The notes under the pieces: model-generated | The model's input: only the letters and a program-made list of their open reading frames with translations | What the model was told of the DNA's origin: nothing | Databases searched by the model: none | In this document: positions 3,397 through 30,997 of the stretch, piece by piece | Layout: every line of letters starts with the position of its first letter | How positions within the stretch are numbered: position 1 is the first letter of the stretch | DNA from: Thermoplasmata archaeon | GTDB lineage: Archaea; Thermoplasmatota; Thermoplasmata; Lutacidiplasmatales; UBA184 | DNA length: 64,000 nt | Reading direction: 5' to 3' | NCBI GenBank assembly: GCA_035297105.1 | Contig: DATGZO010000006.1 | Location: forward strand, 5,415 to 69,414 | Program-made: the position numbers and the translations under genes

Positions 3397-5466
3397 TTAT
3401 CCTGTTTGGCGGTCCCGACCCGGGCGCTTTTCCCCCGGCGGGAGATGGCCCTTTCGCCAGGAGGTAGAGGGCAGCTGACGGTGGTCCGAGTCGGCAACGG
3501 CTGGCCGCTGAGGAAAGTCCCCTCTCCGGGAAACACGGGGTCGGGTCGGAGCCCGACGGGCGAGAGTCCGAGCTCCGGAGCAGAAACGACACAGCCCGAC
3601 GGTACGGTGATGGTGGTGCACCGGAGGTTCCGTCGGGATATGATGAAACGGCCGCCTCCCCGGGAGCAAGCCCTGACTGACGGGGTGAGGAGTTTCCCTG
3701 ACCGTCGAGGAGAGCGCGGAGTCGAATGTTGCCTGAAACGGAAAGGGGCTTACTACTGCCACCTGGCCGCACCGGCGAGAAATCGCCGGTGCGTTACCCG
3801 CGCCCCACCGTCGCGCGAACCCTGATCGGCGTCCGAGCGATCTCACTCCGGGTAGGGCCAGCCCGACCGTCCCCTGGACCAGAGGCGCGACGCGATCGCC
3901 CGAGACGGATACGGCGGTCGCGTGGAACGGCGACCCCGATAGCCAATGCCGTGAGTTCTGGGAAATCAACCCGCGGTCGAGAGCGAGGGCCAAGCCGACG
4001 TTCGAGAGAATTGCAAGGCTCATCGGCGGGACCGTAAGGTTCGTGGGTCCGCCCGGTCCCCACGTCAGGTTGGTCGGACTCGCCGACGGCCCGTTCCAAA
4101 CGAAGATCGAGGCGTTCGCCACGTTGGGGAGGGCCTTCGCGAGATCGAGGCTGAATGTGTAGCTCGAGTTGATGTTCAGGAGGATCAAGTTCGTGAGCGC
4201 GCCGGCCGACGGGCCACCCACCGCGGCGAGCAGGCCGCTCGCGGGCGAGTTCACTCCCATGGGAGCGGCGAAGGCGCCGACGCGCTGGGCCAAATCCGCG
4301 TACGCGAAGTAGGCCGGGGACGGCGCCCCGGTGTCGGTGAACCAGGAGCCGGGAGTGTCGCTCTCGAGATTGTAGTAGTCCGCGGATGTGAGGTCGAGCG
4401 GGAGAGTTTGGAGGATCTCCGCCGACACGTACGTCGCCAGGTAACCCCCTGCGATCTCGTCCCCCTGGGGAACGAGCGTTCCGCTTCCGAGCTCGTCGGC
4501 GAGCACGCTCAGCCGGCACGTCGGGCATGCCCCTTGGAGCTCGGACAGCGTCGAGTTCACCCGGTTGGGGAGCGCGGACCCTCCCTGGAGCGAGGCGAAC
4601 CAAATCGCCGGCGGTTCCGGGCCATTGATCGTGCCGGCGGGATAGACGTGGATCGCGATTCCTGAAAGGTTGGGGCCGTTCGTCGCTACGTCGTCGGTGA
4701 TCCACGTGGATTGGGAGCCGCCGGCCCCGACTCCCCCGATTCCGAGGATGGGTGTGGAGGGGTCGACCGTGCGGATCGCCGAGACGTACGACCGGACGAG
4801 TTTAGCGAACCCGACGGGGGTCGTCCCGATGTCCTGGCTCGAGTTCCAGGACGGCCACGGAACCCCGAAATGCGTCCACATCAGGGGCTCGTTCCCGATT
4901 TCCCAGTACGTCGGCGTGAAGTGGAGGTTCTGGATCGAGTAGCTTACGATCGCCGCCGCGAGCGAGGAGTTGTTGACCTCGGCTGGCAGGGTGACGATCG
5001 ATTCGCAATGCACCCAGCCGCACCATGCTACGAACTCCGGATAGGTCGTGGCGGGGGAGACCGCGGTCCCGTTCGCATTGTAGATGACGCCCTGATCCGA
5101 ATCTCCCAAGGGGTCGAAACGGTCTCCGAGGGCCCCCCCGGGCCAACGCACCATGCGGGCGCCTGTCGAGTTGATGGCGGCGGCATTCGCCGAGGTCAGG
5201 GTCTGGTCTGCCCGAAGGTCCACTCCGAGACGCCCTGCGGTCAGCGGAACGGGGGAAGCGGTAAGCGCCGTCAGGTTCGCATTTGCGGGCGGGCCGGGAG
5301 GCACGACACCGGGCGGGGACGGCGTGGGGCTCGGAGCCGGGTGGGGGGGGAATTCCACCAGAACGTAGACTCCGACGCCGGTGATCAGGAGGACGAAGCA
5401 GAGCGCGATCGCGACGGTGGTTCGGTCCCACCCCGTGGGGGGTGGGGGTTCTCTCTTCCGCGACAA
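3397..5466 (-). CDS. membrane-anchored secreted glycoside hydrolase, clan GH-A-like (TIM barrel with YWEIGNEP catalytic motif)
   Basis: N-terminal TM/signal anchor (TVAIALCFVLLITGVGVYVLV), then a Pro-rich linker. The catalytic domain has ...VRWPGGALGDRFD...YWEIGNEP... (acid/base Glu in the NEP motif as in GH5/GH30/GH39) and many N-x-S/T sequons. The protein-like sequence ends near aa ~540 (about nt 3850). The last ~145 aa of the ORF are low complexity and run antisense to the putative rnpB. Confidence 0.6.
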   Translation of the reverse strand: MSRKREPPPPTGWDRTTVAIALCFVLLITGVGVYVLVEFPPHPAPSPTPSPPGVVPPGPPANANLTALTASPVPLTAGRLGVDLRADQTLTSANAAAINSTGARMVRWPGGALGDRFDPLGDSDQGVIYNANGTAVSPATTYPEFVAWCGWVHCESIVTLPAEVNNSSLAAAIVSYSIQNLHFTPTYWEIGNEPLMWTHFGVPWPSWNSSQDIGTTPVGFAKLVRSYVSAIRTVDPSTPILGIGGVGAGGSQSTWITDDVATNGPNLSGIAIHVYPAGTINGPEPPAIWFASLQGGSALPNRVNSTLSELQGACPTCRLSVLADELGSGTLVPQGDEIAGGYLATYVSAEILQTLPLDLTSADYYNLESDTPGSWFTDTGAPSPAYFAYADLAQRVGAFAAPMGVNSPASGLLAAVGGPSAGALTNLILLNINSSYTFSLDLAKALPNVANASIFVWNGPSASPTNLTWGPGGPTNLTVPPMSLAILSNVGLALALDRGLISQNSRHWLSGSPFHATAVSVSGDRVAPLVQGTVGLALPGVRSLGRRSGFARRWGAGNAPAISRRCGQVAVVSPFPFQATFDSALSSTVRETPHPVSQGLLPGRRPFHHIPTEPPVHHHHRTVGLCRFCSGARTLARRAPTRPRVSRRGDFPQRPAVADSDHRQLPSTSWRKGHLPPGEKRPGRDRQTG
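3456..3768 (+). ncRNA. rnpB: probable RNase P RNA (type A-like)
   Basis: A GAGGAAAGUCCCC motif at ~3511-3523 is the universal 5' strand of P4. A matching 3' strand ACGGAAAGGGGCUUAC sits at ~3738-3753, and GGGGCU pairs with AG(U)CCCC with the conserved bulged U (a covariant form of the E. coli CCGG/CCGG P4). Putative P1 pairs GCCAGG...GGCAG (3456-3475) with CUGCC.CCUGGC (3756-3767). A short P3-like hairpin GUCGGCaacgGCUGGC lies between P1 and P4. The total of ~313 nt is typical for archaeal RNase P RNA. No covariance model could be run, so the ends are approximate. Confidence 0.5.
3770..3791 (+). other. perfect 9-bp hairpin with GAAA tetraloop (CACCGGCGA-gaaa-TCGCCGGTG) directly after the putative rnpB 3' end
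   Basis: Inverted repeat read directly from the sequence. It could be a 3' processing or termination structure for rnpB, or an independent stable stem. Confidence 0.4.
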
Positions 5467-5509
5467 CCCAGTGGGTCCCTTCCTCTCCCAGCCCGACTAC
5501 CGTTGGGGC

Positions 5510-6484
5510 CTAAGACCCTCCGGGCCCTCGGTATGGGAGGTCCCCCGAAGCCGAGTGGCTCGGCTCGGAGGTGGCGGGAGGAGACCGAAGAGGCGGCGGA
5601 CGGAAGTGGGCCCGCCCGATCCCATAGATGGCCACCAAGACCAACACAACTCCCAGTCCCTGAAGGAGCGAGAGACGTTCCCCCAGCAGGAGGGCCGAAG
5701 CGGTCAAGGCGACCACCGGGACGAGGAAGAGGTAGGCGCTGATCTGGGCCGCCGGGGTGCGGTCGAGGAGCGTGAACCAGATCGCATAGCCCACCGCGGT
5801 CCCCGCCAGGCCGAGCCAAAGGGCGGCGGCGACCACATCCAGGGTCGGAGCCGGGAACGACGTGGGGGTCAGGAGCACGGAAGCGAGGAGGAGGCCGGAG
5901 AATCCCCCGGCGAGCTGATAGACGCTGGCCGACAGGATCTCGGGGGTCCGGAACCGACGTTGGAAGAGGACCGTCCCGAGAGCCCAGCTCACGGACGCCG
6001 CCCCGAGCTCGAGCAACGGGAGGACCGAGACGCCGCCGCCCGTGAGGGACCAGAATTGGGCGATGAGAGCGACTCCCACGAACCCGACCCCGATGGACGC
6101 CCACGCTCCGGCGCTGAGGGGCCGACCGAGGACGGGAGCGGAAAGGAGGGCGACCCAGAGCGGGAAGGTGTAGATCATGACCGAGGCAATGCCCGGCGGA
6201 ACCGAGCGGGCCGCCACGAACCACAGCCCGAAGAACAGCGTGGTGTTGGGGAGGCCGAGGAGCAAGGCATCTCGTTTCGCGCGCCGATCGAATGCTCCCC
6301 AACCGCGGGCCGCGGTGACGAGCACGACCATTCCGCCGAGCCCTATCCCGCTGCGGAGGGTCGCCAGCCAGAGGGGTCCCGAGCCGGTCAGTCCGAGACT
6401 GACAAAGAGGTAGTTCAGCCCCCAGATCGACACGAGGACTGCGAGCAGCGGCCAGGTCGCTTCCGACCAGGGTCGTGGGTTCAC
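5510..6484 (-). CDS. EamA/DMT-family transporter (10-TM drug/metabolite exporter)
   Basis: Two EamA-like halves with characteristic hydrophobic helices (...VLVSIWGLNYLFVSLGL..., ...ISAYLFLVPVVALTASALLLGERLS...). Confidence 0.75.
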   Translation of the reverse strand: MNPRPWSEATWPLLAVLVSIWGLNYLFVSLGLTGSGPLWLATLRSGIGLGGMVVLVTAARGWGAFDRRAKRDALLLGLPNTTLFFGLWFVAARSVPPGIASVMIYTFPLWVALLSAPVLGRPLSAGAWASIGVGFVGVALIAQFWSLTGGGVSVLPLLELGAASVSWALGTVLFQRRFRTPEILSASVYQLAGGFSGLLLASVLLTPTSFPAPTLDVVAAALWLGLAGTAVGYAIWFTLLDRTPAAQISAYLFLVPVVALTASALLLGERLSLLQGLGVVLVLVAIYGIGRAHFRPPPLRSPPATSEPSHSASGDLPYRGPGGS

Positions 6485-6602
6485 AAGAAGGGGGGAATCG
6501 TCGCCGACTTAGGCGTTGCCGGGGGATGTGCGCCGCTCAAATGGGAGAATTCAACGCGCGGCCCCTCGAAGTTCTTAAGGCGAAGACCCCCTCTCCCGAC
6601 CG

Positions 6603-7541
6603 ATGTCACTCCGTGGCCGCGACCTGATCTCCATCCGGGACCTGACCAAGGAGGAGATCCTGGCCCTCCTCGCCTCGGCCCGGAAGATGATCCCCTACGC
6701 CGAGGGAAAGCGGGTGATGCACCCGCTCGCCGATCGCATCGTCGCGATGGGTTTCTTCGAGCCTTCGACCCGGACCCGGCTCTCGTTCGAGGCGGCGGTC
6801 CATCGGCTCGGGGGCAACTGCATCACGATCGCCGACGCCGCGGCGAGCTCGATGCGCAAGGGCGAGAGCCTCTCCGACACGATCCGGATGCTCAGTTCCT
6901 ACGCCGATGCCATCGTCCTACGACACCCCAACGAGGGGGCCGCCCAACTGGCCGCCCGGGCGGCCGACGTCCCGATCGTCAACGCGGGGGACGGGGCGGG
7001 CCAACACCCGAGCCAGACCCTACTCGATCTAGCGACCATGCAGGAGGCGTTCGGAACCCTCTCCGGCCTCAAGGTCGTCCTCTTGGGCGACCTGCGATAC
7101 GGGCGCACCGTCCACTCGCTGGCCTATGCGCTCGCGCTGTTCGGGGTCGAGATCGTTCTCTCCTCGCCACCGGAGCTCCGCCTTCCCCAGGAGCTGCGCG
7201 ACGAGCTCGAGCGAACTGGGGCCAAGATGTCGCTCGAACCCGACATGCGGAAGGCCGTCCGCGACGCGGATGTCCTGTACGTCACCCGCATCCAGAAGGA
7301 ACGGTTCGGGGACGAAGGCGAGTACCGCAAGGTGGCGGGCTCCTACCGGATCGACGCCCACATCCTCGCCGACGCGAAGCAGCGGCTCGTGGTCATGCAC
7401 CCCCTCCCGCGGGCGGGGGAAGTGGCCCCCGAGGTCGACCGGACGAGCCACGCGGCCTACTTCCGGCAGGCATTCCTCGGCGTGCCGGTCCGGATGGCCC
7501 TTCTCGATGCGATCCTGGCCGGACCCAAGGGGAAAGAATGA
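6603..7541 (+). CDS. pyrB: aspartate carbamoyltransferase catalytic subunit
   Basis: MSLRGRDLISIRDLTKEEILALL..STRTRLSFE...HPLP. The STRTR and HPxQ/HPLP motifs and the 312-aa length fit PyrB. Confidence 0.93.
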   Translation: MSLRGRDLISIRDLTKEEILALLASARKMIPYAEGKRVMHPLADRIVAMGFFEPSTRTRLSFEAAVHRLGGNCITIADAAASSMRKGESLSDTIRMLSSYADAIVLRHPNEGAAQLAARAADVPIVNAGDGAGQHPSQTLLDLATMQEAFGTLSGLKVVLLGDLRYGRTVHSLAYALALFGVEIVLSSPPELRLPQELRDELERTGAKMSLEPDMRKAVRDADVLYVTRIQKERFGDEGEYRKVAGSYRIDAHILADAKQRLVVMHPLPRAGEVAPEVDRTSHAAYFRQAFLGVPVRMALLDAILAGPKGKE

Positions 7542-8005
7542 CCGCCATGCGCGAGCTCCGCATCGCGGCGATCAAGAACGGGACCGTGATCGACCACATC
7601 GGCAACGGCCTCGCGATCGATGTGCTCCGGATCATCAACGCCCGCGGTCTCGACCGGGACTCGACCGTCTCGGTGGGGATCCACGTGCGGTCCGGGAAGC
7701 TCGGCTGGAAGGACATCGTCAAGGTCGAGAACATGGAGCTCTCCGCCCGGAAGGTCAACGCGATCGCCCTGATCGCGCCCACCGCGACGATCTCCATCAT
7801 CCGGGACTTCAAGGTCCAGGAGAAGCGACCGGTCGACCTGCCCGACACGATCGTCGGGGTCGTGACGTGCCCGAACCCGAGCTGCATCTCGAACCAGGGG
7901 GAGCCGATCGAGAGCGAGTTCCGCGTCACCCGCCGGCGTCCGGTGGTCCTCACGTGCGTCTTCTGCGAGCGCACGATGGACGACTTCCTCGCCCACCTCG
8001 CGTAG
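7538..8005 (+). CDS. pyrI: aspartate carbamoyltransferase regulatory subunit
   Basis: MTAMRELRIAAIKNGTVIDHI...CPNPSCISNQGEPIESEF...VLTCVFCERTM. The Zn-binding CPNPxC...CxxC motif and 155-aa length fit PyrI. Its ATG overlaps the pyrB stop (ATGA). It is the C-terminal end of the otherwise spurious 874-aa ORF 5381..8005. Confidence 0.9.
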   Translation: MTAMRELRIAAIKNGTVIDHIGNGLAIDVLRIINARGLDRDSTVSVGIHVRSGKLGWKDIVKVENMELSARKVNAIALIAPTATISIIRDFKVQEKRPVDLPDTIVGVVTCPNPSCISNQGEPIESEFRVTRRRPVVLTCVFCERTMDDFLAHLA

Positions 8006-8017
8006 GCCCGCCGCCCG

Positions 8018-8641
8018 ATGGTCGACCTCGGGGCCGCCACCGGGTTCGTGGCCGTCTTCGCGATCGTCGGATTCTTCGAACTCTTCGACCGGACCAGTTT
8101 CGCCCTGATCGCCATCGCCTCGCGCGCCCGACCGTTCCCGACGTGGGCGGGCGGGGCGCTCGCGTTCGTCGCTTCGACGGCGATCGCGGTCGTCGTGGGA
8201 GTGGGGTTCACCGATCTGCTCGGACCGGGCCACATCGGCTGGCTCCGGGTCGCGGGAGGGGGAGTGCTGCTCGCGTACGCCGCGTGGGTCTACGTCCAAC
8301 CTGCGGAGGAGGGCGAGCGGCCACGGGGACCGCCCGGCTCCGCGTTCCTGGTCGCGTTCGCGACGATCTTTCTCCTCGAGATGGGAGACACGACCATGAT
8401 CTTCGAGATAGTCTTCATCGCCGACTGGGGATGGCTGGTGGTCCTGGTGGCCGGTGCGTCGGCGCTCGTGACCGTCGCCGCCTGGGACGTCGCGCTCGGC
8501 CGTCGGCTCGGCCTTCGGGTGCAGCCCGAGACGCTCCGCCGGATCGTCGTGGTGGTGCTCACGATCGTCGGAGCCGCGACGATCGCCTACGGGCTAGCGC
8601 CGAGCGCGTTCCCGTCGCTCGGGTTCGCGGCGACGGGCTAG
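8018..8641 (+). CDS. UPF0016/GDT1 (TMEM165)-family cation transporter
   Basis: Two repeats of the signature E-x-G-D-(K/R)-(T/S) (ELFDRTS and EMGDTTM) within 6 predicted TM helices. Length 207 aa. Confidence 0.75.
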   Translation: MVDLGAATGFVAVFAIVGFFELFDRTSFALIAIASRARPFPTWAGGALAFVASTAIAVVVGVGFTDLLGPGHIGWLRVAGGGVLLAYAAWVYVQPAEEGERPRGPPGSAFLVAFATIFLLEMGDTTMIFEIVFIADWGWLVVLVAGASALVTVAAWDVALGRRLGLRVQPETLRRIVVVVLTIVGAATIAYGLAPSAFPSLGFAATG

Positions 8642-10882
8642 CGGCTCCGTCGGGGGCAGCTTGCCTCCACCATGAGCGGACGCGGGCGCCCAGCGCGCCA
8701 GGTCGGGGAGAAGTTCCTTCCACGCCGGCGGGAGCGCGGCGGCGACCTCGGGCACTTCCAGGCGCAGGGCGAGGGGTTCGGCATCCTCGGGCCGTTTCCG
8801 GGCGTACTCCAGGAGAGCGAGTCGCAGGAGGGCCTCGGCCCGGATCCCGGGGAGCCCCGTCGATTCGGTCTCATCGATGAGCGCGAGCCACCGTTCCCGG
8901 GCCGGTTCGCTCAACTCCTCCATCGCGAACTGCCGGCCTTCGACGAGCCACAGGCGCAGGAGAAGAGGGGACGGGGGGAGCAGGTGGAGCGTCTCCGCGA
9001 TCGTGCGCGAGCGCGCGAGCGATTCTTCGACCCCCTTGGTCATCCCCTCGTCCAAGAGACCGGCGACGATCGCCAGGCGATGACCGAGCTCGACGGGCAG
9101 GAGCTTCTGCCGCTGGAGCGCGGTCAGGCTCTTCTCCCGGATCAGGCGACCTTCCGCCGTGTTGCCACGGGATTCCAACAGCCGGGCCTCCAAGTCCTCG
9201 GCGATGTAGTCGAGCTCCCATCGGCGCGCCTTGCCGAGGACGATCCGGGACGCCTTCAGGAATCGGCCCGCGAGCGCTTGTTCCTCGGGGGTCCCATCGA
9301 TCCGGGAGAGACCGACCGCGACGAGCGCGATCGCCTGCATGTGGCCCTCGGGAAGGGTGCGGGCGAGGAGCGCGGCGCGGTGGGATTCGGCCCGGGCCTT
9401 CTCAAAGTTCCGGCGAAGGCTGTGGAACTCCGCGAGCACGGCCTCGATCAACACCTCGATCTCGACGGCCCGATCGTCGTGGGCCCGCTCCGCGAGCTCG
9501 GACAGGGCCGTGATCAGGGCCGGCCGGGGACCGACCCCGCGGAGGATGAGGACGAGCGGTTCGAACCACTCGGCGATGAGGTCGTGGGGGACGTGGGCTT
9601 GGAGCGCCCCGCTCAGTCCGTCGCGAAGCTCTCCCTCCGCTTCGGTCAGTCGGCCCGCCGAGAAGAGCGAGCGCGCGTGAAGGAGCCGAAGTTCCGCTTC
9701 CACTGCGAGCCGTTCGCCGGCCGGCACCGCGCCGGTGCACCCGAGGGCTTCGGAGAGGAGTTCTTCCGCGCTGTCGAACGCGAGGAGCTGGAGCGAGAAC
9801 TCGGCGGCCTCGAGGAGGTTGCGGAGGGCCATCGGGCCGCGGAACCACGCCAGGTAGTGGCGCGCCACCTCGATCCGTCGAGCGAGGTTCGGCTCCGGCG
9901 AGAGGGCGGCCAACGCGTTGGCGATCTCGAGGTGCATTTCCTTGCGCTGCGCCTCGGGAATCAGGTCCGCGGTCAGCGGGACCCAGGGAAGGTGGGGGAT
10001 CGTGACCTTCCCGTCGGTGACCTTGATGAGTCCGACCCCCGACGCGGGGAGCAGCGCGTCCGCGAGTTGCGTGAAGCTGAGCCGAGTCACCCGGGAGAGC
10101 ACCACCTCCCCGACGCCGCCCCCCAACAGGGCCACGTAGCCGGCGATCCGCTGACTGAGCACGGGGAGGTCGTCGAACACCGCCTTCAGCCGATGCGCCT
10201 CGCGGGGGTCCCTCAGCGGCTCTAAGATCCGCACCCAATCGACGTCCCCCCGTCCCAAGAAGGCCTCTTCCCAGGCGATGTAGCCCGGGTTGGTCGAGTC
10301 GAGCGCCATCACGATCAGGAAGGGTCGATAGCGCGCCCGTCGGGAGAGCGTTACGATGAACTCGCGGCTGTCCGCGTCGAACAGGGCCGCGTCGTCGATG
10401 AAGATCACGAACGGCTGGGGGGTGGGCCCGCGGAACCCATCGAGTAACTCGTGCCAGAATCCCTCCGGGTCTCCTTCGTTCGCAGACCGTCCGCGAACCG
10501 GCTGGCCCAGGAAGGAGGAGCGCGGGCGCTCCCCACGGCTCCGCCGGCTCCGGGGGGTTTGCTCCGGAAGGTACGGGATGGGGGCGAGCGGGGGCGCGGG
10601 GACTCCGAGGGGGGAATCGTTGTCGGTGGCCGACTCCTCGTGCGGGGCATCCGCCGCCTCGGGAGATCGCAACCCGTCGAGGGCCCCGAACGGGATGGAT
10701 CGCGACCGATAGCTTCCCCGCAATTGGACGACCCGGGCGTTCCGGTTGGCGAGCAGGCTCCGGAATTCCTCCATCAGTTCGGATTTTCCACTGAGCGGCG
10801 GCCCGGTGACGACGACAGTGCGGCCCGAATTCTCGGCGAGCCCCTCGAGGGCCCGAAGAAACGGGGATGGGAGGGAAGGCAC
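8594..10882 (-). CDS. STAND/AAA+ NTPase with C-terminal TPR-like helical repeat array
   Basis: N-terminal P-loop (VVVTGPPLSGKSELMEEF) and Walker B (FVIFIDDAALF), followed by ~500 aa of Leu/Ala-rich helical repeats. This resembles the AAA_16/NB-ARC-type ATPase plus TPR architecture. Confidence 0.7.
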   Translation of the reverse strand: MPSLPSPFLRALEGLAENSGRTVVVTGPPLSGKSELMEEFRSLLANRNARVVQLRGSYRSRSIPFGALDGLRSPEAADAPHEESATDNDSPLGVPAPPLAPIPYLPEQTPRSRRSRGERPRSSFLGQPVRGRSANEGDPEGFWHELLDGFRGPTPQPFVIFIDDAALFDADSREFIVTLSRRARYRPFLIVMALDSTNPGYIAWEEAFLGRGDVDWVRILEPLRDPREAHRLKAVFDDLPVLSQRIAGYVALLGGGVGEVVLSRVTRLSFTQLADALLPASGVGLIKVTDGKVTIPHLPWVPLTADLIPEAQRKEMHLEIANALAALSPEPNLARRIEVARHYLAWFRGPMALRNLLEAAEFSLQLLAFDSAEELLSEALGCTGAVPAGERLAVEAELRLLHARSLFSAGRLTEAEGELRDGLSGALQAHVPHDLIAEWFEPLVLILRGVGPRPALITALSELAERAHDDRAVEIEVLIEAVLAEFHSLRRNFEKARAESHRAALLARTLPEGHMQAIALVAVGLSRIDGTPEEQALAGRFLKASRIVLGKARRWELDYIAEDLEARLLESRGNTAEGRLIREKSLTALQRQKLLPVELGHRLAIVAGLLDEGMTKGVEESLARSRTIAETLHLLPPSPLLLRLWLVEGRQFAMEELSEPARERWLALIDETESTGLPGIRAEALLRLALLEYARKRPEDAEPLALRLEVPEVAAALPPAWKELLPDLARWAPASAHGGGKLPPTEPLARRREPERRERARR

Positions 10883-10916
10883 CCGGTACCTCGGCCAATC
10901 AACGGACGTCGGGGTT

Positions 10917-12047
10917 ATGATGTTGCCGCGCGGTTTCGAAATCCGGCGCGAGCGTTATTTGAGCCCTCGTGTTGGCGCCCACGTGTCTCCTTCTGTCTCG
11001 GCCCGGCGTCGTGCCTACCTGAAGAAGCCCGTCCGCGCGGTCGATGTGACGAACGGCAGAGGGATCGGGGATCTCGTGGACCAGTTCCGGTCCAGTTCGA
11101 TCCAGGCCCGGAACCTGGGACGCTGCCTCGAGGTGTGGGAGAACGCCCTCACGGACCGAAAGCGCCCTACGATCCTCCTGGGTCTCTCGGGGCCGCTCAT
11201 CGCGGCGGGGCTGAGGAAGGTCCTGCGCGACCTCGTCGACTGGGGCCTCGTGGACGTCGTGGTCACGACGGGCGCGGTGATGTACCAGGACCTCTACCAA
11301 ACCACGGGCGGCCGTCACTGGATGGGGACGCCGACCGCGGACGACGTCCAGCTCCGGGACCTGTACCTCGACCGCATCTACGACACGTACGTCGACGAGC
11401 TCAAGTTCGAGGACACCGACCGCGCCATCGGCAAGATCACCGAGCAGTTCCCCCGACGACCCGCCTCTTCGCGCGAGTTCCTTCAGTTCCTCGGGGAGCG
11501 GTTCGACGACCCCGACTCGATCCTCGCCACCGCCGCACGGCGGGGTGTGCCGGTCTTCTCTCCCGCCTTGATCGACAGTTCGATCGGCATCGGTCTGACG
11601 CTCTACTACCAGAAGAACCGAAAGCGCGCGGACCGGTTCATCCTGGACGCTGTACGGGACAACTATGAGCTCGTGCAGATCCTGTCCCACTCACCCCGCA
11701 CCGCAGTGATCTACATCGGCGGCGGGACCCCGAAGAACTGGATCAACGACGGGATTGTGATGGCGAACTACGCGTTCGGGCGGGAAGGAGAGGGCCACTT
11801 CTACGCGCTGCAGATCACGACGGACGTCCCCCACTGGGGGGGCCTCTCCGGGAGCACACTCGATGAGGCCCAGTCCTGGGGTAAGATCTCCCGTACGGCT
11901 ACGCGAGCGATGGCGCATGTGGAGGCCTCCATCGGACTCCCACTGCTCGCGGGCGCCCTTTGGGACCGCCGAAAAGTCTGGCAACCGCGGACGCGGCTCA
12001 AGTTCCACTGGACCGGGGACGAGGTCAAGATCACGCGGGGAAAGTAG
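10917..12047 (+). CDS. dys: deoxyhypusine synthase
   Basis: ...GLVDVVVTTGAVMYQDLYQ...IYIGGGTPKNWINDGIVMANYAFGREGEGHFYALQITTDVPHWGGLSGSTLDEAQSWGKI... are typical DHS motifs. The ORF begins at 10746, but Met at 10917 is chosen to avoid overlapping the upstream divergent gene. The N-terminus is uncertain. Confidence 0.85.
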   Translation: MMLPRGFEIRRERYLSPRVGAHVSPSVSARRRAYLKKPVRAVDVTNGRGIGDLVDQFRSSSIQARNLGRCLEVWENALTDRKRPTILLGLSGPLIAAGLRKVLRDLVDWGLVDVVVTTGAVMYQDLYQTTGGRHWMGTPTADDVQLRDLYLDRIYDTYVDELKFEDTDRAIGKITEQFPRRPASSREFLQFLGERFDDPDSILATAARRGVPVFSPALIDSSIGIGLTLYYQKNRKRADRFILDAVRDNYELVQILSHSPRTAVIYIGGGTPKNWINDGIVMANYAFGREGEGHFYALQITTDVPHWGGLSGSTLDEAQSWGKISRTATRAMAHVEASIGLPLLAGALWDRRKVWQPRTRLKFHWTGDEVKITRGK

Positions 12048-12391
12048 GACGAGCTCGGGAAATCCCGAAGCGGAGGGTGCCCCGATGACGTTAAGGCCGT
12101 GTGACCCTGTAGCACGGGAGCCCTGCTCCGGCCCACCCAACAGGGCCCCCCGGGCGGGGGCACTATCTCCGTTTTCAGAATTCTGGAATTAGTGCGCATT
12201 TCTACGTGTTCATGCGCACCGTATAACCGACCTTGGAAAGGGGTCCGGATCTTGTGTGCTTAAATACGCCTAAAATCGAGGGCCCATCGGAGGTGAGACC
12301 GCACAATGTACATCCCCGCTCTGCCGCCGGTTCCTCGCGAACAGCTGTAAGTCCGACTTCCCGGGGCGCACCCTCAGGGGTGCGTCCCGAG

Positions 12392-14884
12392 CTACGGCTG
12401 GGCTGGAGATACTTCATCGACAGGCTTGCCGAGCGCTCCACCGGGGGGACTGCTAGGCTGCAAGGCTGCCGTAAGGCCCGGAAATTCATCTCTCAAATTG
12501 GTGTTCAACCAGTCGAGCCCAAGTTCATCGGCCAAAGCCTTAGCCTGCAGGTAATGCTCTGCGGCCCTAGTTTGATCCTTCTTGTAGCTGTACGCTTCGA
12601 CTAGATACGCGTGGCTGACGGCAAGTGAGTCAGAATGAGGCAACCGTCCCAAGATCTCGACACTCCGTTCACAGTGGACGATCGAATCCTGAACCAGTGT
12701 GGGCTCCCCGCCTTGGTCGGCTACATGGAATTCAGTGGATCCGAGGAGACCCAATGTGTGGCCAAGCACCAAGTCGTTTCCAAGCCGCTCGGCGAGGGTG
12801 ATGGCCTGCTTGGCGTAATTCGCCGCGTCGTCCAGATGGCCGGTTTGAATCGCCAGAGCCGAGAGTCCACTCAGCGCGTACGCAAGCTGATTGACGTAGC
12901 CCAAAGACTCTGCTTCTGACCGGATCTGATGCATCTCCCGGCTGGCCTCCTCCATGCGGCCGGTCACGGTGTAGGCCCGGGATCGCACAAGGAGAAGGTT
13001 GAACACGATGTCGACCCTGCCTTCCGCTCGAGCCTCAGGTAGGGCCGCCGCAATCACCTGGAGCGTTTCCTCATGTCGGCCACTGTACAGTTCCGATAGA
13101 CTCGTCCACGCCGCGATGCTCTCGAGAGCCAGGTCCGTTATCCGAGTCCTTCTTGCGTATTCGAACGCGGACTGGTACTGGCGCTCTGCCTCCCGCTTGT
13201 CCCCAGAGGCCTCGGTCAATCGGGCCTGGGTCAGCGAGAAGAACGCCTGAAGTCGTCGGTTGATGGGGCCGAACTTCTTCGCCTTCTCGAACTCGGCGAT
13301 GGCCTCGGGGACCTGCCGCAGACGGATCAAAAGGTCGACGATCGAGAGCAGGCACTGGCACGTGAGGACCGGGTCGTGGTCCGCCTCTTCCATGGCCCGG
13401 CGAAGGGACGCGATCGCCTCCGCGTAGTTGGAGTGCTGCCGCAGGAGCTTGATTTCCGTGTTCAGGGCACGAACTCGGCTCGGACCGCGGGGTAGCACCG
13501 TGGAAAGATGGCGCAGCGCGCTTCGGAGCGCCTCCGAGTATCCGAGACTGAGGAGGACCTTCTCCTGCTGGGTGAGCAGTTGGAGGGCGGCCTTCCACGA
13601 CTCCCCCTCAACTAGGTGGAGGAACCGAAGCCGGACCGAATCCGCCCGGTGACTCCGGGCAAAGTAGGAGGCCAACCGGATGTGGGAAGCCCTTTCCTGG
13701 CTGGGACGGACCTGGTTCAGGATCGCAGCTCGGACCACCTGGAGGATTTCGAGCTGTCCCTGAAGCGTTCGATGGAGGATCCCCATTCGAGTGAGATCCT
13801 GGACCCGGGCCAAGGTGAGCGCCTCGGTCTCCGTCAGGAAGCTCAGGGGAAGCGGCTCGTTGGCGATGGCCAGTGGCAGGATCGCCTCGAACTCGACCTC
13901 CGGGAGGCGCCGGAGGACACCGCTGGGCAGGGCCGAAGCGGGTCCGGAGACCTCGGGGTTGTGCACGGCGAGGTTCAGGAGTAGGGGCGAACCCAGGGTG
14001 GACTGGAAGACGCTCTCGAACCGGTCGGCGAGTCCACCTGCCCGATCGGTCAGATCGTGGGCGGAAGCCCGGTCCAAGCCCCCGACCGTCAGCCGGTAGG
14101 TAGGCACCTGGTCGAGCTCGAAAATGGGGGCCTCTTGCGAGATGAAGTACAGCCGGTGACCACCCCCCCGGATGAGACCCTGGGCGAACTCCTTCAGGAA
14201 CCGCCCGAGCTCGGACCCTGCTAGTTGGGTATCGTCCACGACAGCCACCAGTTGCCGTTCTCCGAGAGCGCGACTCGCAAGATCGGCGACCTCCTTGGGT
14301 GTCGGCGGGCGGGGGAGCTGCGCATAGTACGCCAGCTGCCGGGCTCCCAGCACCTGAAGTGAGTGGGCGAGCGCGCTCACGAAATGGCGAGGGGTGCTCG
14401 CGGGGCGGATGGCGAACCAGAACGGGATCCGTCCCCGGCGCGTCTCGCGGAGGTGTCGACTGACGAGGGCGGTCTTACCCATCCCGGGGGCCCCGTCGAC
14501 GAAGACGGCCGTCCCCAGCCCCCCGCGCACGAAGTCGGCCAGTTGGCTCAATTCCTCCCGCCGGCCCAGGAAAGGGTGGGGGGGTGCCGGGATCTCGCCC
14601 GACAGGATGGGGACTTCCTTCGTTTCCTTCCGGAGTCGGGTCCGGCCCTCCTCCGTCAGGTTGTAGGTGATCTGCTTTCGGACTCCGTCCCGGACGAGCT
14701 TTCTTCGGGCCGTGAGGAGCCCCTCCCCGATCAGGCTGTCGAGCGGGCGGGACATGGAGCACGGGTGGTAGCCCAGGGCCCGGGCGAGCTCCCGTTGACT
14801 GATGCCGAACACCGAATCGTCGGCGGGGGCGTGCGTCTGCACGTAGTCGAGGATCTCGATGGGAAGGTAAGTCTGCCCCGCCAC
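12392..14884 (-). CDS. wHTH - STAND NTPase (AAA_16/NB-ARC-like) - TPR protein
   Basis: N-terminal winged helix (ISQRELARALGYHPCSMSRPLDSLIGEGLLT), P-loop (VFVDGAPGMGKTALV), Walker B (LVAVVDDTQL), and a C-terminal ~450 aa of TPR-like repeats. Confidence 0.72.
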   Translation of the reverse strand: MAGQTYLPIEILDYVQTHAPADDSVFGISQRELARALGYHPCSMSRPLDSLIGEGLLTARRKLVRDGVRKQITYNLTEEGRTRLRKETKEVPILSGEIPAPPHPFLGRREELSQLADFVRGGLGTAVFVDGAPGMGKTALVSRHLRETRRGRIPFWFAIRPASTPRHFVSALAHSLQVLGARQLAYYAQLPRPPTPKEVADLASRALGERQLVAVVDDTQLAGSELGRFLKEFAQGLIRGGGHRLYFISQEAPIFELDQVPTYRLTVGGLDRASAHDLTDRAGGLADRFESVFQSTLGSPLLLNLAVHNPEVSGPASALPSGVLRRLPEVEFEAILPLAIANEPLPLSFLTETEALTLARVQDLTRMGILHRTLQGQLEILQVVRAAILNQVRPSQERASHIRLASYFARSHRADSVRLRFLHLVEGESWKAALQLLTQQEKVLLSLGYSEALRSALRHLSTVLPRGPSRVRALNTEIKLLRQHSNYAEAIASLRRAMEEADHDPVLTCQCLLSIVDLLIRLRQVPEAIAEFEKAKKFGPINRRLQAFFSLTQARLTEASGDKREAERQYQSAFEYARRTRITDLALESIAAWTSLSELYSGRHEETLQVIAAALPEARAEGRVDIVFNLLLVRSRAYTVTGRMEEASREMHQIRSEAESLGYVNQLAYALSGLSALAIQTGHLDDAANYAKQAITLAERLGNDLVLGHTLGLLGSTEFHVADQGGEPTLVQDSIVHCERSVEILGRLPHSDSLAVSHAYLVEAYSYKKDQTRAAEHYLQAKALADELGLDWLNTNLRDEFPGLTAALQPSSPPGGALGKPVDEVSPAQP

Positions 14885-14978
14885 GAATAACTCCGAGCGT
14901 CTCCCCCCTACTTAGAGTTATTTTGTACAAATCAACTCCCGAGCTTTATATCCCGGATTTGCCCAACCAATCATTGCT

Positions 14979-15338
14979 ATGACGCGCTCGCGGGAAAGCG
15001 GTGCCTACCTCGGAGGCATCGGAACGATGCTCGGGGAGACTCGGGCGTGCGACTCCTGTGGGGGCGTTCACGAAAGCCACCCGTTCGGCTTCCAGCACCG
15101 GGACGGACACGAGTGCCCGGCCCTGGTCGAGAAAGACTTCGCGATCGTCAGCCTGCTGGACGGAGAGACCGACCGTCCGGAAACGCTCTCCGATGAGTTC
15201 AGCATCGCCCTCCCCCGCTCGGACCTCCCGGTCGCCTTCGGGGCCGTGCCGATCCCCTCGCCCCGTGACTCCCGATCGCACCAGCGCACCCTGGAAGTCC
15301 CCTGGCTGGCCCCGCCTACCCTGAGCGAGGTGGTCTGA
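14979..15338 (+). CDS. hypothetical Cys/His-rich protein
   Basis: Strong GC3 bias (~85 percent G/C at third positions). It contains ...CDSCGGVHESHPFGFQHRDGHECP... Its stop overlaps the next ORF start (TGATG). Confidence 0.45.
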   Translation: MTRSRESGAYLGGIGTMLGETRACDSCGGVHESHPFGFQHRDGHECPALVEKDFAIVSLLDGETDRPETLSDEFSIALPRSDLPVAFGAVPIPSPRDSRSHQRTLEVPWLAPPTLSEVV

Positions 15339-15553
15339 TGCTGCGAGGCGGACGCGCCCCTCCCTCGGGCACACTGATGGACACGATCCGGGGTCAGCCC
15401 CTGCGGGCCCGGGAATTCCTGCTCGCGGTCGCTCCCCTCCCTCGCGGGGAAGCGTTCCGCATCGGGGGATGGCCTCGCTGGCTCGTTCCCTCGGAGATCT
15501 ACCTCTCTCCCAACATCTCCACCAAGGGGTCGCACCGACGCGAACGTCACTGA
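15338..15553 (+). CDS. hypothetical small protein, translationally coupled to the preceding ORF
   Basis: ATG overlaps the upstream stop by one base (TGATG). GC3 is high. No recognisable family. Confidence 0.3.
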   Translation: MLRGGRAPPSGTLMDTIRGQPLRAREFLLAVAPLPRGEAFRIGGWPRWLVPSEIYLSPNISTKGSHRRERH

Positions 15554-15699
15554 ATCACGATGTTTAGGCTCCGGCGGGATACCCGGTCCCGCCGGAGCCG
15601 GTATTTTTCCCCTCCTCCGAAAAACGAGGACCGGGAGGCGGTTCCTCCGCGCCACAAACGAAAGATACATCCCGCGAGTGGACCATCCGGTACTGGTTC

Positions 15700-15927
15700 A
15701 TGCCTGAAACGAAGTGTGCCGTCTGCGGCGGGCCCCTCGACCACGGGTACTTGACCACCACGAACGGCTCGGGACTCTTCTGGTCCCACGACAAGACCGA
15801 CCTGCGCTTTCGGCCCACCGGACTGGAGGTCCTGGTCCCGACGGGGTTCGGCGGGACCTACTCGGCCAACCTGTCGGGCCTTCGCTGTGCCCACTGCAAG
15901 ACGATCCTCGTCAGCCTCCCCAAGTAG
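15700..15927 (+). CDS. small zinc-ribbon protein (CxxC...CxxC)
   Basis: MPETKCAVCGGPLDHGY...LRCAHCKTILVSLPK has two CxxC pairs ~55 aa apart, in the intergenic gap before pmbA. Confidence 0.5.
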   Translation: MPETKCAVCGGPLDHGYLTTTNGSGLFWSHDKTDLRFRPTGLEVLVPTGFGGTYSANLSGLRCAHCKTILVSLPK

Positions 15928-20413: not shown

Positions 20414-21640
20414 GTGTACAGACCACCATCGGGGCTAAAGCCCGAACGCCATATCCCGCACGTGCGTCGTTCTACCCGGATCAACCTCAGCTCGGACGAA
20501 CTGGCTCGACTCCGAGGCTGGGTCGATGACCCCGCGACCCCGGCCCGGGTCCGCGACCGGTCCCGCATCCTGCTCTGGTCGGCCGCCGGTCATTCCGACG
20601 CGGAAATCTCGACCGGACTCGGCAAGGACGTGGCCACGGTCGCGCTGTGGCGACGACGCTTCCTGCTGCATGGACTCTCGGGAGCGCTCCGCGATGCGCC
20701 CCGCCCCGGTCGGAGGCCCAAGCACCGGGACTCCCTCAACGACCGCATCCTCGACGCCACGTTCAACGAAACGCCCCCTCGCGGAGCGCGCTGGAGCACG
20801 CGCGCGCTCGCCCAACGGTTCGGGGTGAGCCACATGGTCGTCCAACGCCTGTGGCAGTCTCAGGGGGTCGGCGCCAAGACCTCGTACCGGATCCCGGATC
20901 GGTTGGCGGGCGCCCAGCTCCCGTTTGTAGACTTGCTGGGGGTTATACTTCAGCCACCAACGCGGGTCGTGATCATCGGCGTGGAGCTCACCGGGGAGTC
21001 GCGAATCGCCCACGTCGAACCGTTGTTCCAGACCTTGCGGACGGAGCTCTCCGGAGGGCATCTTTTCCACTCAGTCCGAGCCGACCCCGAGGACCTGATC
21101 GCGTTGCTCGACGGGTTCCATGAGATTCCGGCCGGTCCGCCGGGACGGCGTTTGCAGCTCGCCAATCTCCTCATCCTCCTCCGAGAAATTGATGAGCGGA
21201 CGAGCGCCACGACCAGGGTCCATCTGCTGGCCGAAGGTCGGGGCGCGGCGAAGGACCCCCGGCTCGCGGCCTGGATGCGCCTCCATCCGCGCTTTGTCCT
21301 GCACAACCTGCCGGTGGGTTCGGAATGGGAACGCGAGGTCGGCCGCTTCGTCCATCAGTGGCAGTCCGTGACACTTCGCACCGGCAGTTTTCAGGGCGTC
21401 TCCGCATTCACCCGGGCCGCAGCGAGGTTCGCGGCCCGTCCTCCCGTCCACCGCGACGGCATGGCATGGAGCATCGGACCGATGCTCGATCGCGCTACGC
21501 AGCTTCATGCGAGCGGATCGGCTGTCCCGCCCCTGCCCAATTCCACGCGGTCCGTGGACGGCACATCGGCTCAACCACCGCCCACGTCAGAGAATTCACG
21601 ACTTAGTGAGAAATTTTCGTTACGAACCGTGGGTCCTTAA
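20414..21640 (+). CDS. IS630-family transposase-like protein with substituted catalytic triad
   Basis: N-terminal paired HTH typical of IS630/Tc1 (...ISTGLGKDVATVALWRRRF...WSTRALAQRFGVSHMVVQRLWQ...). The DDE_3-like region aligns as VIIGVELTG (for VLSVDEK), HLLAEGRG (for ILDNLSAH) and SEWEREVGRF (for SWLNPVERFF). No terminal inverted repeats or TA duplication were found. Confidence 0.55.
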   Translation: MYRPPSGLKPERHIPHVRRSTRINLSSDELARLRGWVDDPATPARVRDRSRILLWSAAGHSDAEISTGLGKDVATVALWRRRFLLHGLSGALRDAPRPGRRPKHRDSLNDRILDATFNETPPRGARWSTRALAQRFGVSHMVVQRLWQSQGVGAKTSYRIPDRLAGAQLPFVDLLGVILQPPTRVVIIGVELTGESRIAHVEPLFQTLRTELSGGHLFHSVRADPEDLIALLDGFHEIPAGPPGRRLQLANLLILLREIDERTSATTRVHLLAEGRGAAKDPRLAAWMRLHPRFVLHNLPVGSEWEREVGRFVHQWQSVTLRTGSFQGVSAFTRAAARFAARPPVHRDGMAWSIGPMLDRATQLHASGSAVPPLPNSTRSVDGTSAQPPPTSENSRLSEKFSLRTVGP

Positions 21641-30400: not shown

Positions 30401-30815
30401 CAGCTGGACCGTGACGCTCGCGGGCACTCCGAGTACCCAGACGACGGCGTCCATCACGTTCTCGGGTCTCGTGAACAACACCTATGCCTACACCCTCGGA
30501 GCCGTGACGGGCTACACGTCCTCGGTCACCTCGAGCTCGGTGATCGTGGCCGGTGCCTCCAAGACCGTGGGCGTGACGTTCACCGCGTCGAGCAGCCCCC
30601 CGCCGTCCGGCTCGGGTAGCAGCAGCGGCCTGTCCACGCTGGACTGGATCATCATCGGCGTCGTGATCGCGGTCATCATCATCGCCCTGATCATCGCGCT
30701 CGCCATGCGCGGCCGGTCGGGCGGCGGTGGGTCGAACACCGGAAGTTCCCCGAAGGAAGAGTCGGGGGACAGCTCGAACATGGACGACGGCTCGTCCGGC
30801 GGGGGCTCTGCGTAG
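27402..30815 (+). CDS. large N-glycosylated surface protein: signal peptide, thermopsin (peptidase A5)-like N-domain, four tandem ~85-aa Ig-like repeats, Ser/Pro linker, C-terminal TM anchor
   Basis: MADRRAVLLGTALVTLIMVLSAMGLLLVVAPPAGA signal. The N-domain (...PIGLADYGL...FWTQNVAEFYP...) resembles archaeal thermopsin-family proteases, but this assignment is from memory of the family. Repeats are of the type YTVTFTETGLPSGASWTVTLAGTPS...ITFSGLVNNTYAYTLGAVTGYTS. The C-terminus is ...SSGLSTLDWIIIGVVIAVIIIALIIALAMRGRSGGGG.... Confidence 0.6.
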   Translation: MADRRAVLLGTALVTLIMVLSAMGLLLVVAPPAGAHSTAVSVVTTGAPARMAAGGTSSPPTSAGPASRLNVPATSTTLSPLAEKVLTSAHAQGIPNRDVFVPRAGATPAQEARAGAQGHVTPLYGQYSPAPIGLADYGLSANTNGNGSIVPSILNTSALLATFAPNATGVLAAYPFDSSPDAYGVQLNAVSTAINLFGNSSYSFWTQNVAEFYPTSGTLYLVTNVWNFSGASISGNAFYTTGTLGTDNSASYGSAGFYYSEYIVTGLSYPFTLNLYMNSTLNSTRNMVTFSVGINDPSNPGVSGGYPYDYVVFNSSAAVQSNYEANGFTYNALGLTNDFEVILGGPGGGATSDLFDADANLSLQYWNASAGSYEEVPTAFSYGGETGETVTGANVAWAINSTGSPYGVVTTGPGILEGLWNATGAQGAYPVTLDITPSNAFYFVAPNWTSNFTYEGDPYWAPQELNGGVFYLAPGNYNISILLSDYDPVYTNFIVTSAGVTITMTLTADASMGIYAPLYFWNNNQFAALSSSGSGTPSSPWQIDNTQTLAFPSVFGLFNDYTFPVFTGVFIWGTTDSVVLNDMPALTTGSPYINFPATNDLGYIFYYASNIALVNSTQISGWFTTNVASGIGYGFIGNYYATFSVLEWESTGMLFSGDTFQVQAGGIYAADGTSNTFWGNTFEDVAIPTFAACATFHICAENLSLGLQLAEGGDTVYNNAFNLPDPASEPPFDLYTGSEVLWTNTWNITPTPAATVNYAAGWPDFPLTGTIIGNATQGGNYWSNYGNSANPTGMLPYNNSQPTGAPYGQIYNGGDYYPLVYTYYAVTFTESGLTAGTMWTVTLNSVAQHSSGTTIVFNEINGVWPFTVSLVSGYHAPVPATGSITVNGAATGQTVTFTAIAPPPTYTATFTETGLAASTNWSVTFNSVVYYSTTGTISISGLANNTYPWTLRAQTGFTANQTTGNVVIAGADVATFIGFTAVTPATYTVTFTETGLPSGASWTVTLAGTPSTQTTASITFSGLVNNTYAYTLGAVTGYTSSVTSSSVIVAGASKTVGVTFTASSSPPPSGSGSSSGLSTLDWIIIGVVIAVIIIALIIALAMRGRSGGGGSNTGSSPKEESGDSSNMDDGSSGGGSA

Positions 30816-30836
30816 GGGTTCCGGCGAACCCAGGGC

Positions 30837-30862
30837 CAACCCTTTCCTTCCTTTCTCCTTCG
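30837..30862 (+). terminator. pyrimidine-rich 3' motif CCAACCCTTTCCTTCCTTTCTCCTTC
   Basis: It lies 22 nt after the stop of 27402..30815 and is shared with 22817..22841 and 35627..35650. Confidence 0.4.
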
Positions 30863-30965
30863 GTTCATCCGACCGGGCGACGGCCCTCTCAGGCCACCGG
30901 GCCACGGGCCGGCACCGGGGAAGAGCGGCGCGCGGATTCTGCAGGAATCGCCGAGGTCACGAGAC

Positions 30966-30973
30966 TTAAGTAG
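30966..30973 (+). promoter_or_regulatory. TATA-like box (CTTAAGTA) ~25 nt upstream of the ATG at 30998
   Basis: Same spacing as for the paralogous upstream gene. Confidence 0.35.
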
Positions 30974-30997
30974 CGAGCCCCGTTCGCAACGGTGAAC

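Follow-up and report, generated by a model that had tools for sequence, protein, structure and literature searches.

The question raised by this locus is what two large STAND-class ATPases are doing on either side of a deoxyhypusine synthase gene, and whether they belong to antiviral defence or to gene regulation. The DNA analysed, referred to here as the window, is a 64-kb stretch of 66% G+C with archaeal gene content (thermopsins, ThrRS, pyrBI, dys and ComA). Protein A (8594..10882, minus strand) is a 762-aa STAND-type ATPase recognised as an open reading frame (ORF) with an AAA_16 domain, protein B (12392..14884, minus strand) is an 830-aa PH0952-type STAND protein and predicted transcription factor, and dys (10983..12047, plus strand; deoxyhypusine synthase, 354 aa) lies between them. 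An earlier note on this DNA had proposed that A and B are signal-transducing regulators or antiviral proteins; both ORFs are intact, on the minus strand and on either side of dys, as it described, with coding-type G+C at third codon positions (0.85 in A and 0.77 in B). The regulator branch of that proposal stands for B, and the antiviral branch falls on a PADLOC search, on the absence of an effector domain and on synteny. Together with a palindrome at its promoter and a conserved micro-ORF that converges on it, B probably forms a receptor-micropeptide cassette.

Protein B matches Pfam AAA_16 (39.0 bits against a cut-off of 32.6) and, also above its cut-off, TPR_12, with sub-threshold matches to TPR_MalT and to winged helix-turn-helix (wHTH) families of the MarR_2/IclR/Crp type. 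Its domain map comprises the wHTH (residues 1-90), a nucleotide-binding domain (NBD, ~104-270), a helical domain (HD, ~285-325), a winged-helix domain (WHD, ~329-391), an arm (~394-500) and a tetratricopeptide repeat (TPR) array (~500-808). AlphaFold models of A and B were built from family alignments; that of B has a mean pLDDT of 81.6 and shows the order alpha-beta-alpha-alpha-beta-beta-alpha at residues 7-88, a region whose profile matches PadR/MarR structures weakly (E 0.01-0.03). The closest solved structure is PDB entry 6mfv, which is found by the B profile at E 1.1e-14 (profile positions 103-548, the hidden Markov model (HMM) being collinear with 6mfv residues 13-442) and is also the top PDB match of the B model in Foldseek (E 3e-17 over 725 columns). 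This entry is PH0952, a STAND ATPase of Pyrococcus horikoshii with a TPR sensor, itself a predicted transcription factor with an N-terminal ArsR-like winged helix followed by NBD (102-262), HD, WHD, arm and TPR sensor, and its clade is placed between MalT and APAF1 (PMC6468293). PH0952 is archaeal, has the same domain order as B and is the best profile and fold match of B as well as the best fold match of A, whereas its identity to B is ~14% and its TTR and VHD motifs are replaced in B by SQx and LQV. B is accordingly a predicted STAND transcription factor of the PH0952 type, with a wHTH, a nucleotide-binding oligomerisation domain (NOD) and a TPR array.

The Walker A and B motifs are intact in both proteins, as the earlier note stated, and are invariant in 40 homologues of each (G-x-P-G-M-G-K-T and V-x-D-D in B; G-P-P-x-S-G-K-S and I-[ED]-D in A). 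The GxP motif of the HD is an invariant G-S-P in B, aligned to G-H-P of PH0952, and the aligned position in A reads G-Y-V, which departs from the motif. As read from the alignment, I-T-T-R at the sensor-1 site of PH0952 becomes V-S-Q-x in B (Q250 invariant) and V-H-D in the WHD becomes L-Q-V (Q382, at least 90% conserved). Protein A, for which the alignment likewise stands in for a solved structure, retains the WHD His as I-P-H (H297 invariant) and has A-L-D at sensor-1. Both proteins are intact, PH0952-like STAND-class ATPases with TPR-type sensor arrays, and the layout of NTPase plus helical repeats that had been noted is correct for each. It is also true that they are not close paralogs, given that BLASTP aligns them only at the P-loop (E 0.059) and a profile-profile comparison reaches 40% probability and E 3e-4, with the NODs collinear. 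An enzymatic or death-type effector domain was looked for in both with Pfam and NCBIfam and found in neither; B has its wHTH.

A scan in which each species was represented by one genome found 122 proteins related to B, from which 80 loci were kept, including UBA184, 'Candidatus Lutacidiplasmatales' and 'Ca. Lutacidiplasma silvani'. The dys and B genes end 345 bp apart, and BLASTN comparison of this interval reveals a ~90-nt stretch that is conserved even where B is ~50% identical. This stretch consists of a TATA-like TTAAATA, an invariant GGAGGTG, and then ATG, 13 codons and a stop. In the window, the TATA-like element (GCTTAAATACG) lies at 12258-12268, with TTAAATA kept in an alignment of 23 loci, the Shine-Dalgarno (SD) sequence, a perfect GGAGGTG, at 12289-12295, invariant in the same alignment, and the 14-codon micro-ORF (MYIPALPPVPREQL) at 12306..12350, all on the plus strand; the micro-ORF and B are convergent, with their stop codons 41 nt apart. 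Spacing from SD to ATG is 7-11 nt in 51 regex-matched copies. Every locus whose sequence continues past B carries the micro-ORF (72/72; 56 by a relaxed scan and 16 N-terminally extended or variant forms read by eye), with the consensus [YFW]-x-P-x-[VL]-P-P-[VLIM]-P-[RHQT]-[ED]-Q-L. It occurs in 47 distinct DNA versions. It bears a coding signature, with an entropy of 0.77/0.59/1.38 at the three codon positions and a synonymous share of pairwise codon differences that is 39% in the reading frame, as against 14% and 10% in the two alternative frames. Furthermore, it is the only combination of GGAGGTG, start codon and short ORF (<30 codons) in the whole window. Its universal presence, coding signature and uniqueness therefore indicate that the micro-ORF is a real gene, one of 14 codons that is conserved and that no annotation pipeline calls.

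The cassette extends beyond this order. B has 3,741 relatives in an exhaustive profile search, and 102 score below E 1e-30; the next-closest group consists of 750-790-aa wHTH-AAA_16-TPR proteins, and further out are archaeal STAND-TPR proteins of 850-1,060 aa whose N-termini differ (DUF835, for example). From the wHTH group, ten loci were taken, nine of which have sequence past the stop and are assessable; a metagenome scan for loci of this distant clade returned two, one of them usable. The neighbourhoods of the loci taken are unrelated to that of the window, lacking dys, TldD and pyrBI, and are mostly unlike each other, with some flanking genes shared only within two close pairs (L084/L089 and L085/L088). 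A convergent micro-ORF is nevertheless found in 9/9 assessable distant loci, 38-126 nt past the regulator stop and preceded by GGAGGTG at a 5-7-nt spacer. The peptides take the form (M)DP[TN]xPPxx[WF]P (MDPNPGSSWP, MDPNPGGSWP, MDPTEPPSLFP, MDPTEPPNSWP, MDPTEPPSAFP and MDPTVPPDAWP, together with MSGPDDPTIPPSGWP, MDPTFPPGGSPPY and MFDPNEPPSGSP). Upstream of each lies an AT-rich inverted repeat of the pattern ATTTT[CG]..[CG]AAAAT (e.g., AAATTTTTCAGTGAAAAATTT-GGGTTAAATCC, AATTTTTTCGAAAAAATC and GATTCTCCACGGAAAATC), directly abutting a clear TATA in several loci, and its half-site ATTTT[CG] resembles the ATTTTG of the window. In L092 the palindrome ATTTTTGCGCAAAAT stands upstream of the regulator gene and a copy with 1-2 mismatches at the micro-ORF promoter. 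No micro-ORF accompanies an 896-aa relative whose N-terminus is different; a gene lies 8 nt past its stop. Since the triad recurs with unrelated neighbours, the regulator, the Pro-rich micro-ORF and the AT-rich repeat behave as one conserved unit, and the micro-ORF is linked to B and not to dys, because distant homologues retain it where dys is missing.

The third element of this unit was located by aligning the ~95-bp gap between B and a divergent small ORF over ~70 loci. An AT-rich 18-bp palindrome, perfect in the order consensus (TTATTTTGTACAAAATAA), stays constant in this gap while its flanks diverge; the window copy, TTGATTTGTACAAAATAA on the strand of B (14918..14935), has two mismatches to the consensus. 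In 72/83 loci the core, TTTGTACAAA, is found a single time in the 22 kb of the locus, always 45-60 bp upstream of B, and in the window it has no other copy. On one side the palindrome abuts the TATA-like box of B (TCTAAGTA; 14909..14916, minus strand), 25 nt from the GTG start, where CTAAGTA is conserved at a fixed distance from the start in ~70 loci. On the other side it is ~10 nt from the TATA-like box of the divergent operon (TTTAAGTA/CTTTATAT; 14944..14951, plus strand), 27 nt from the ATG. A dimeric winged-helix protein seated here would cover the TFB-recognition element (BRE) side of the B promoter and positions of about -45 to -50 of the divergent promoter, and from this placement we infer that the palindrome is a candidate operator of the wHTH of B.

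The first gene of the divergent operon, sORF1 (14979..15338, plus strand; 119 aa, conserved in 72 loci), supplies a further observation that fits a link. Its C-terminal tail, VPWLxPPDLxEVL in 72 loci (window 15297-15338, …VPWLAPPTLSEVV), and the micropeptide (YLPxLPPVPREQL) share PP at -8/-7, E/D at -3 and L at -1 (72 and 71 sequences), so that PP-x3-[ED]-x-L-COOH is common to both in the same register. The peptide could therefore mimic or compete with the sORF1 tail, although this is a resemblance.

Judged from these sequence patterns, it is probable that B, the operator and the micropeptide work as a receptor-micropeptide cassette, in which peptide binding, DNA binding and oligomerisation would be coupled as follows. 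TPR-sensor STANDs are closed at rest (PMC6468293), and B would likewise rest as a closed, nucleotide-bound monomer. The micropeptide would enter the TPR groove, as might the sORF1 C-terminal tail in addition or instead, and release the autoinhibition exerted by arm and sensor, upon which the NOD would open and oligomerise. The winged helices would then occupy the palindrome, activating the divergent small-protein operon and placing B under autoregulation; in the distant clade, where the operator would lie at the micropeptide promoter, the same event would feed back on the peptide. The more specific proposal, that the Pro-rich peptide of 10-16 residues from a convergent, leaderless micro-ORF is the inducer which opens the STAND switch, making this an archaeal peptide-receptor cassette of PH0952-type regulators, is advanced tentatively, as somewhat less likely than not.

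Several observations weigh against this scheme. When five peptide positions were scanned for mutual information with the columns of B, the values were no higher than for A, TldD, PmbA, pyrB or dys, phylogeny being the dominant signal. In the order of the window, the palindrome sits at the B and sORF1 promoters, and a comparable inverted repeat is present at the micro-ORF promoter in only a subset of loci. The peptides are Pro-rich and hydrophilic, unlike the known signals of the leaderless communication peptide (LCP) and short hydrophobic peptide (SHP) types. A is missing from 2/46 loci of the order and 8/9 distant loci. Finally, two residues typical of canonical STANDs, the sensor-1 Arg after strand beta-4 and the WHD His of the 'MHD'-type motif, are absent from B, whose nucleotide switch may therefore work differently; the distant clade retains T-Q-R at sensor-1, and its WHD His is likewise gone.

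A and B each have >100 full-length homologues of constant length and 57-91% identity, all named ones from Thermoplasmata and many sharing contigs. The gene order runs aminotransferase IV, glyoxalase, TldD, PmbA, small ORFs, B, dys, A, GDT1, pyrI, pyrB, EamA; dys comes next after B in 54/54 loci with room, GDT1-pyrI-pyrB follows A in 41/41 loci and TldD-PmbA stands ahead of B in 45/51. A and B each occupy a single locus and have been inherited vertically within a Thermoplasmata clade at order level (UBA184/Lutacidiplasmatales), set in a housekeeping block whose order is frozen in ~80 species-level genomes, and the separate acquisitions suggested for them earlier are not borne out.

Among the alternatives, the one with most in its favour holds that the Pro-rich micro-ORF acts in cis and encodes no ligand. 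A ribosome pausing on PP or at a Pro-stop, in a manner sensitive to hypusinated aIF5A, would tune convergent transcription or the 3' end of the regulator mRNA and so sense translation or hypusination. PP motifs and Pro-stop endings stall ribosomes, and eIF5A/EF-P relieve the stall. Every peptide has a PP or PxP core, most of those in the distant clade end Pro-stop (WP*, FP*, SP*), the ORF is always convergent at 5-170 nt from the regulator stop, and in the order of the window the maker of the aIF5A modification, dys, is adjacent. However, no dys lies near the distant cassettes, the whole peptide is conserved including the non-Pro C-terminus REQL, there is no gene downstream on the micro-ORF strand to regulate, and an operator placed at the promoter of the micro-ORF is at least as compatible with a regulated product, which together leave this explanation unlikely. 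It is less likely still, in our estimate, that A and/or B regulate their neighbours (dys and hypusination, pyrBI, or TldD/PmbA) and that the micro-ORF is an unrelated tiny gene. Adjacency to all of these is conserved across the order, and A and dys are divergent with only ~100 bp between them, but the adjacency says little because the whole ~15 kb block is collinear; moreover, the A-dys gap has no copy of the palindrome, and distant homologues keep the micro-ORF with none of these neighbours.

The antiviral interpretation, in which A and B would be an Avs/NLR-like or sensor/helper STAND pair detecting viral proteins through their TPR arrays, we consider very improbable. What recommends it is the STAND-plus-TPR layout itself, the side-by-side arrangement of two unlike STANDs as in paired NLRs, Avs3 (8dgc) as the second Foldseek match of the B model (E 5e-8), and the IS630-like ORF mentioned in the earlier note, which encodes an IS630-type N-terminal HTH and lies ~5.5 kb from B (20414-21640). 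The Avs3 match has a TM score of 0.18 and a root-mean-square deviation of 32 A, and therefore reflects generic NOD/TPR similarity only. PADLOC HMMs match A and B at best at E 0.002-0.015, with unrelated models, and thus yield no defence assignment; neither protein has a nuclease, protease, TIR or other effector, the extra domain of B being the wHTH. Antiviral STAND sensors tend to be more variable, whereas those of A and B are conserved over their full length at a mean column identity of ~70%. A defence island was ruled out by the PADLOC result, the domain content and the near-invariant neighbourhood, fixed as it is in a housekeeping block in ~80 species. Conserved housekeeping synteny, as opposed to a variable defence-island context, is what the earlier note had itself named as refuting a defence function, and it is what was found; the loss of NTPase motifs, which it named in the same place, was not, given that the motifs are present. 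STAND-plus-TPR architecture by itself is no evidence of antiviral function, which matters for defence-island mining.

Comparison with known systems places A and B as new members of a known archaeal STAND family, to which the conserved regulator-operator-micropeptide cassette is the added element. The structural study of PH0952 reports no inducer, regulon, operator or linked micro-ORF (PMC6468293). Orthology to a characterised regulator was not found for A or B, because PH0952, the closest relative, has no known regulon or inducer (PMC6468293). MalT of Escherichia coli and the LAL proteins are STAND activators with a TPR-like sensor, in which a small inducer opens the NOD for ATP-dependent multimerisation on repeated DNA sites. 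MalT has a C-terminal LuxR-type HTH and responds to maltotriose, whereas B has no GerE/LuxR match and reaches only 26.9 bits against a cut-off of 45 for TPR_MalT; the Pfam scan also gave no SARP/AfsR signature (Trans_reg_C, BTAD) at E up to 1. Avs proteins share the STAND NOD and TPR-like sensor, Avs3 being a weak Foldseek match of B, but have N-terminal nuclease or other effectors, are found in defence islands of variable content and recognise the terminase or portal proteins of phages, none of which is seen here.

The nearest likeness in logic is offered by the peptide receptors of Firmicutes (RRNPP, Rgg-SHP, ComRS and RopB-LCP), in which a cytoplasmic HTH-TPR receptor adjoins a very small signal-peptide ORF and inverted-repeat operators lie at the promoters of the peptide gene or of targets. 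In RopB-LCP, a 24-bp ORF gives rise to a mature leaderless peptide of 8 aa for an HTH-TPR receptor, LCPs being 8-10 aa long (PMC10518010). The B cassette differs in being archaeal, in having a STAND ATPase between the winged-helix DNA-binding domain and the TPR array, and in its peptides, which are Pro-rich and polar instead of hydrophobic and always convergently encoded; the signal may be purely intracellular. B matches NprR and Rap only as generic TPR proteins (E 0.002-0.4), and because it has a STAND NOD and is archaeal it falls outside the RRNPP family (Rap/NprR/PlcR/PrgX/Rgg). Signalling by peptides is not known to be established in archaea, and no link between archaeal STAND-TPR regulators and micropeptides was found in the open-access literature. 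If the proposal is true, no earlier STAND transcription factor would have had a peptide ligand, and the cassette would be a candidate for peptide signalling in archaea, possibly from cell to cell; with the peptide as ligand, STAND/NLR-type ATPase switches would be joined with RRNPP/LCP-type peptide receptors, which have so far been separate fields. A linked micropeptide and a defined 18-bp candidate operator make the inducer question of PH0952-type regulators directly testable, and could reveal what the whole subfamily senses and which target it controls.

Pfam AAA_16 matches protein A at 41.7 bits against the cut-off of 32.6 (E 2e-10), and no Pfam TPR family matches. Its AlphaFold model (pLDDT 80.9, pTM 0.81) shows residues ~300-730 as an all-alpha solenoid, and Foldseek matches this model to TPR proteins, the top PDB match being 6mfv (PH0952) at E 4e-7; for A as for B, the structural alignment with 6mfv spans the full length. 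The A profile has no solved relative among PDB sequences, so that A resembles PH0952 by fold alone. The fold order is NBD-HD-WHD-arm-TPR-like solenoid, with the P-loop directly at the N-terminal start, and no DNA-binding or enzymatic domain was found by Pfam, NCBIfam or the model. Compared with PH0952, the wHTH and the GxP motif are missing from A, and its NBD has an insert of 80 residues between the two Walker motifs (residues 57-136, window 10475-10714). Although disorder is predicted for it (pLDDT 26-51), the insert is Arg-rich and strongly conserved (…RSRRSRGERPRTSFLGQPVRGRSANEGDP…), and may be a nucleic-acid or partner-binding motif. Its second half is nearly invariant and Arg-rich (PRSRRSRGERPRTSFLGQPVRGRSANEGDP), and its position is approximately that of the initiator-specific motif (ISM) helix in STAND and initiator-type AAA+ proteins.

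In 44/46 loci A comes next after dys; it is lost in the two most divergent, which retain B and the micro-ORF; its identity across loci ranges from 35 to 91%, against 47 to 86% for B, and it is the faster-evolving of the two. A is thus probably an accessory STAND that has no effector domain and, on the basis of co-occurrence, may be a second sensor or a hetero-oligomer partner. In one of the nine distant loci (L087), two genes at 3632-5881 (minus) and 6001-8274 (plus) stand head-to-head, one B-like and one for an A-like protein of 749 aa. The A-like protein of that locus matches the A profile at E 6e-10 and has a degenerate P-loop, GPGGIGRG, with no Lys-Ser/Thr. In the window, the 3' ends of A and of the GDT1-family transporter gene (8018-8641, plus strand) overlap by 48 nt (8594-8641), and the same convergent overlap is seen in other loci, e.g., L001 and L002.

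The dys product matches Pfam DS at E 1.3e-82 and the NCBIfam deoxyhypusine synthase model at E 3e-96, under the equivalog cut-off. The conserved start is the GTG at 10983 and not the ORF start at 10746, which leaves ~100 bp to the start of A; in the alignment of this intergenic region dys is preceded by a TATA of its own, and the elements found there are confined to TATA-like and SD-like ones, the palindrome being absent. A functional link to dys was considered and rejected, given the distant cassettes in which dys is lacking and an A-dys gap with promoter-like elements alone. Consequently, dys is probably a bystander of the frozen synteny.

Upstream of the micro-ORF promoter lies element X, a conserved block of ~55 nt (12176..12228, no strand assigned; alignment of 61 loci) that consists of a short inverted repeat, then ATGCGCAT and then ATGCGSRCSGTATAWC. 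The arms of the repeat change together (CAGAATTCTG, CAGGAAACTATTCCTG, TAAGAAATCTTA and TGAGAAACCTCA), with ATGCGCAT and ATGCGGGCGGTATATC next to them. No consensus fold as a structured RNA was obtained on either strand over the 61 loci, and the block may be the binding region of another factor or a second promoter. Rfam returned two sub-threshold chance matches from the intergenic gaps, both inside coding regions, and ARAGORN found no tRNA. In some genomes, such as L009, the distance from the dys stop to the micro-ORF is ~1 kb, and in L009 a 220-aa ORF lies inside it (12711-13373, minus strand).

On the other side of B, the divergent operon continues from sORF1 into sORF2 (15338..15553, plus strand; 71 aa), which overlaps the sORF1 stop in TGATG. 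Over the order, sORF1 has 103-130 aa, an N-terminus of the form MxRxxESGAYLGGIGTML and a CxxCG..H..CP motif, and sORF2 has 66-88 aa with a conserved LLLAVAPPP..GWPxWLxP; neither matches a Pfam family. After sORF2 comes an element (15555..15608, plus strand) made up of an invariant TCACGATG, a GC hairpin of 14 bp (15567-15599) with the loop core ACCCGG, and a T-run. It was recognised by alignment and RNAalifold, which over 17 loci gives 14 pairs, six of them with compensatory changes, and the hairpin with its T-run looks like the terminator of the sORF1-sORF2 operon. The conservation of TCACGATG and the hairpin appears to go beyond the needs of a plain terminator. The last conserved small gene between B and PmbA in all loci inspected encodes a 75-aa DUF6487 zinc-ribbon protein (15700..15927, plus strand; Pfam PF20097, E 3e-7), which brings the small proteins of the divergent operon to three.

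Elsewhere in the window, a phosphosulfolactate synthase gene (45279-46286, plus strand; ComA, E 1e-65) appears to carry a C-terminal fusion to a TrmB/MarR-type winged helix (residues 278-328). Two very large tandem thermopsin-domain proteins of 1137 and 1537 aa are encoded at 27402-35605 (plus strand), the second with NosD/beta-helix repeats. An ORF of 689 aa at 3397-5466 (minus strand) has no Pfam family and a coding-like G+C of 0.79 at third codon positions, and its 3' end overlaps the start region of a neighbouring His_biosynth-type ORF as mechanically called.

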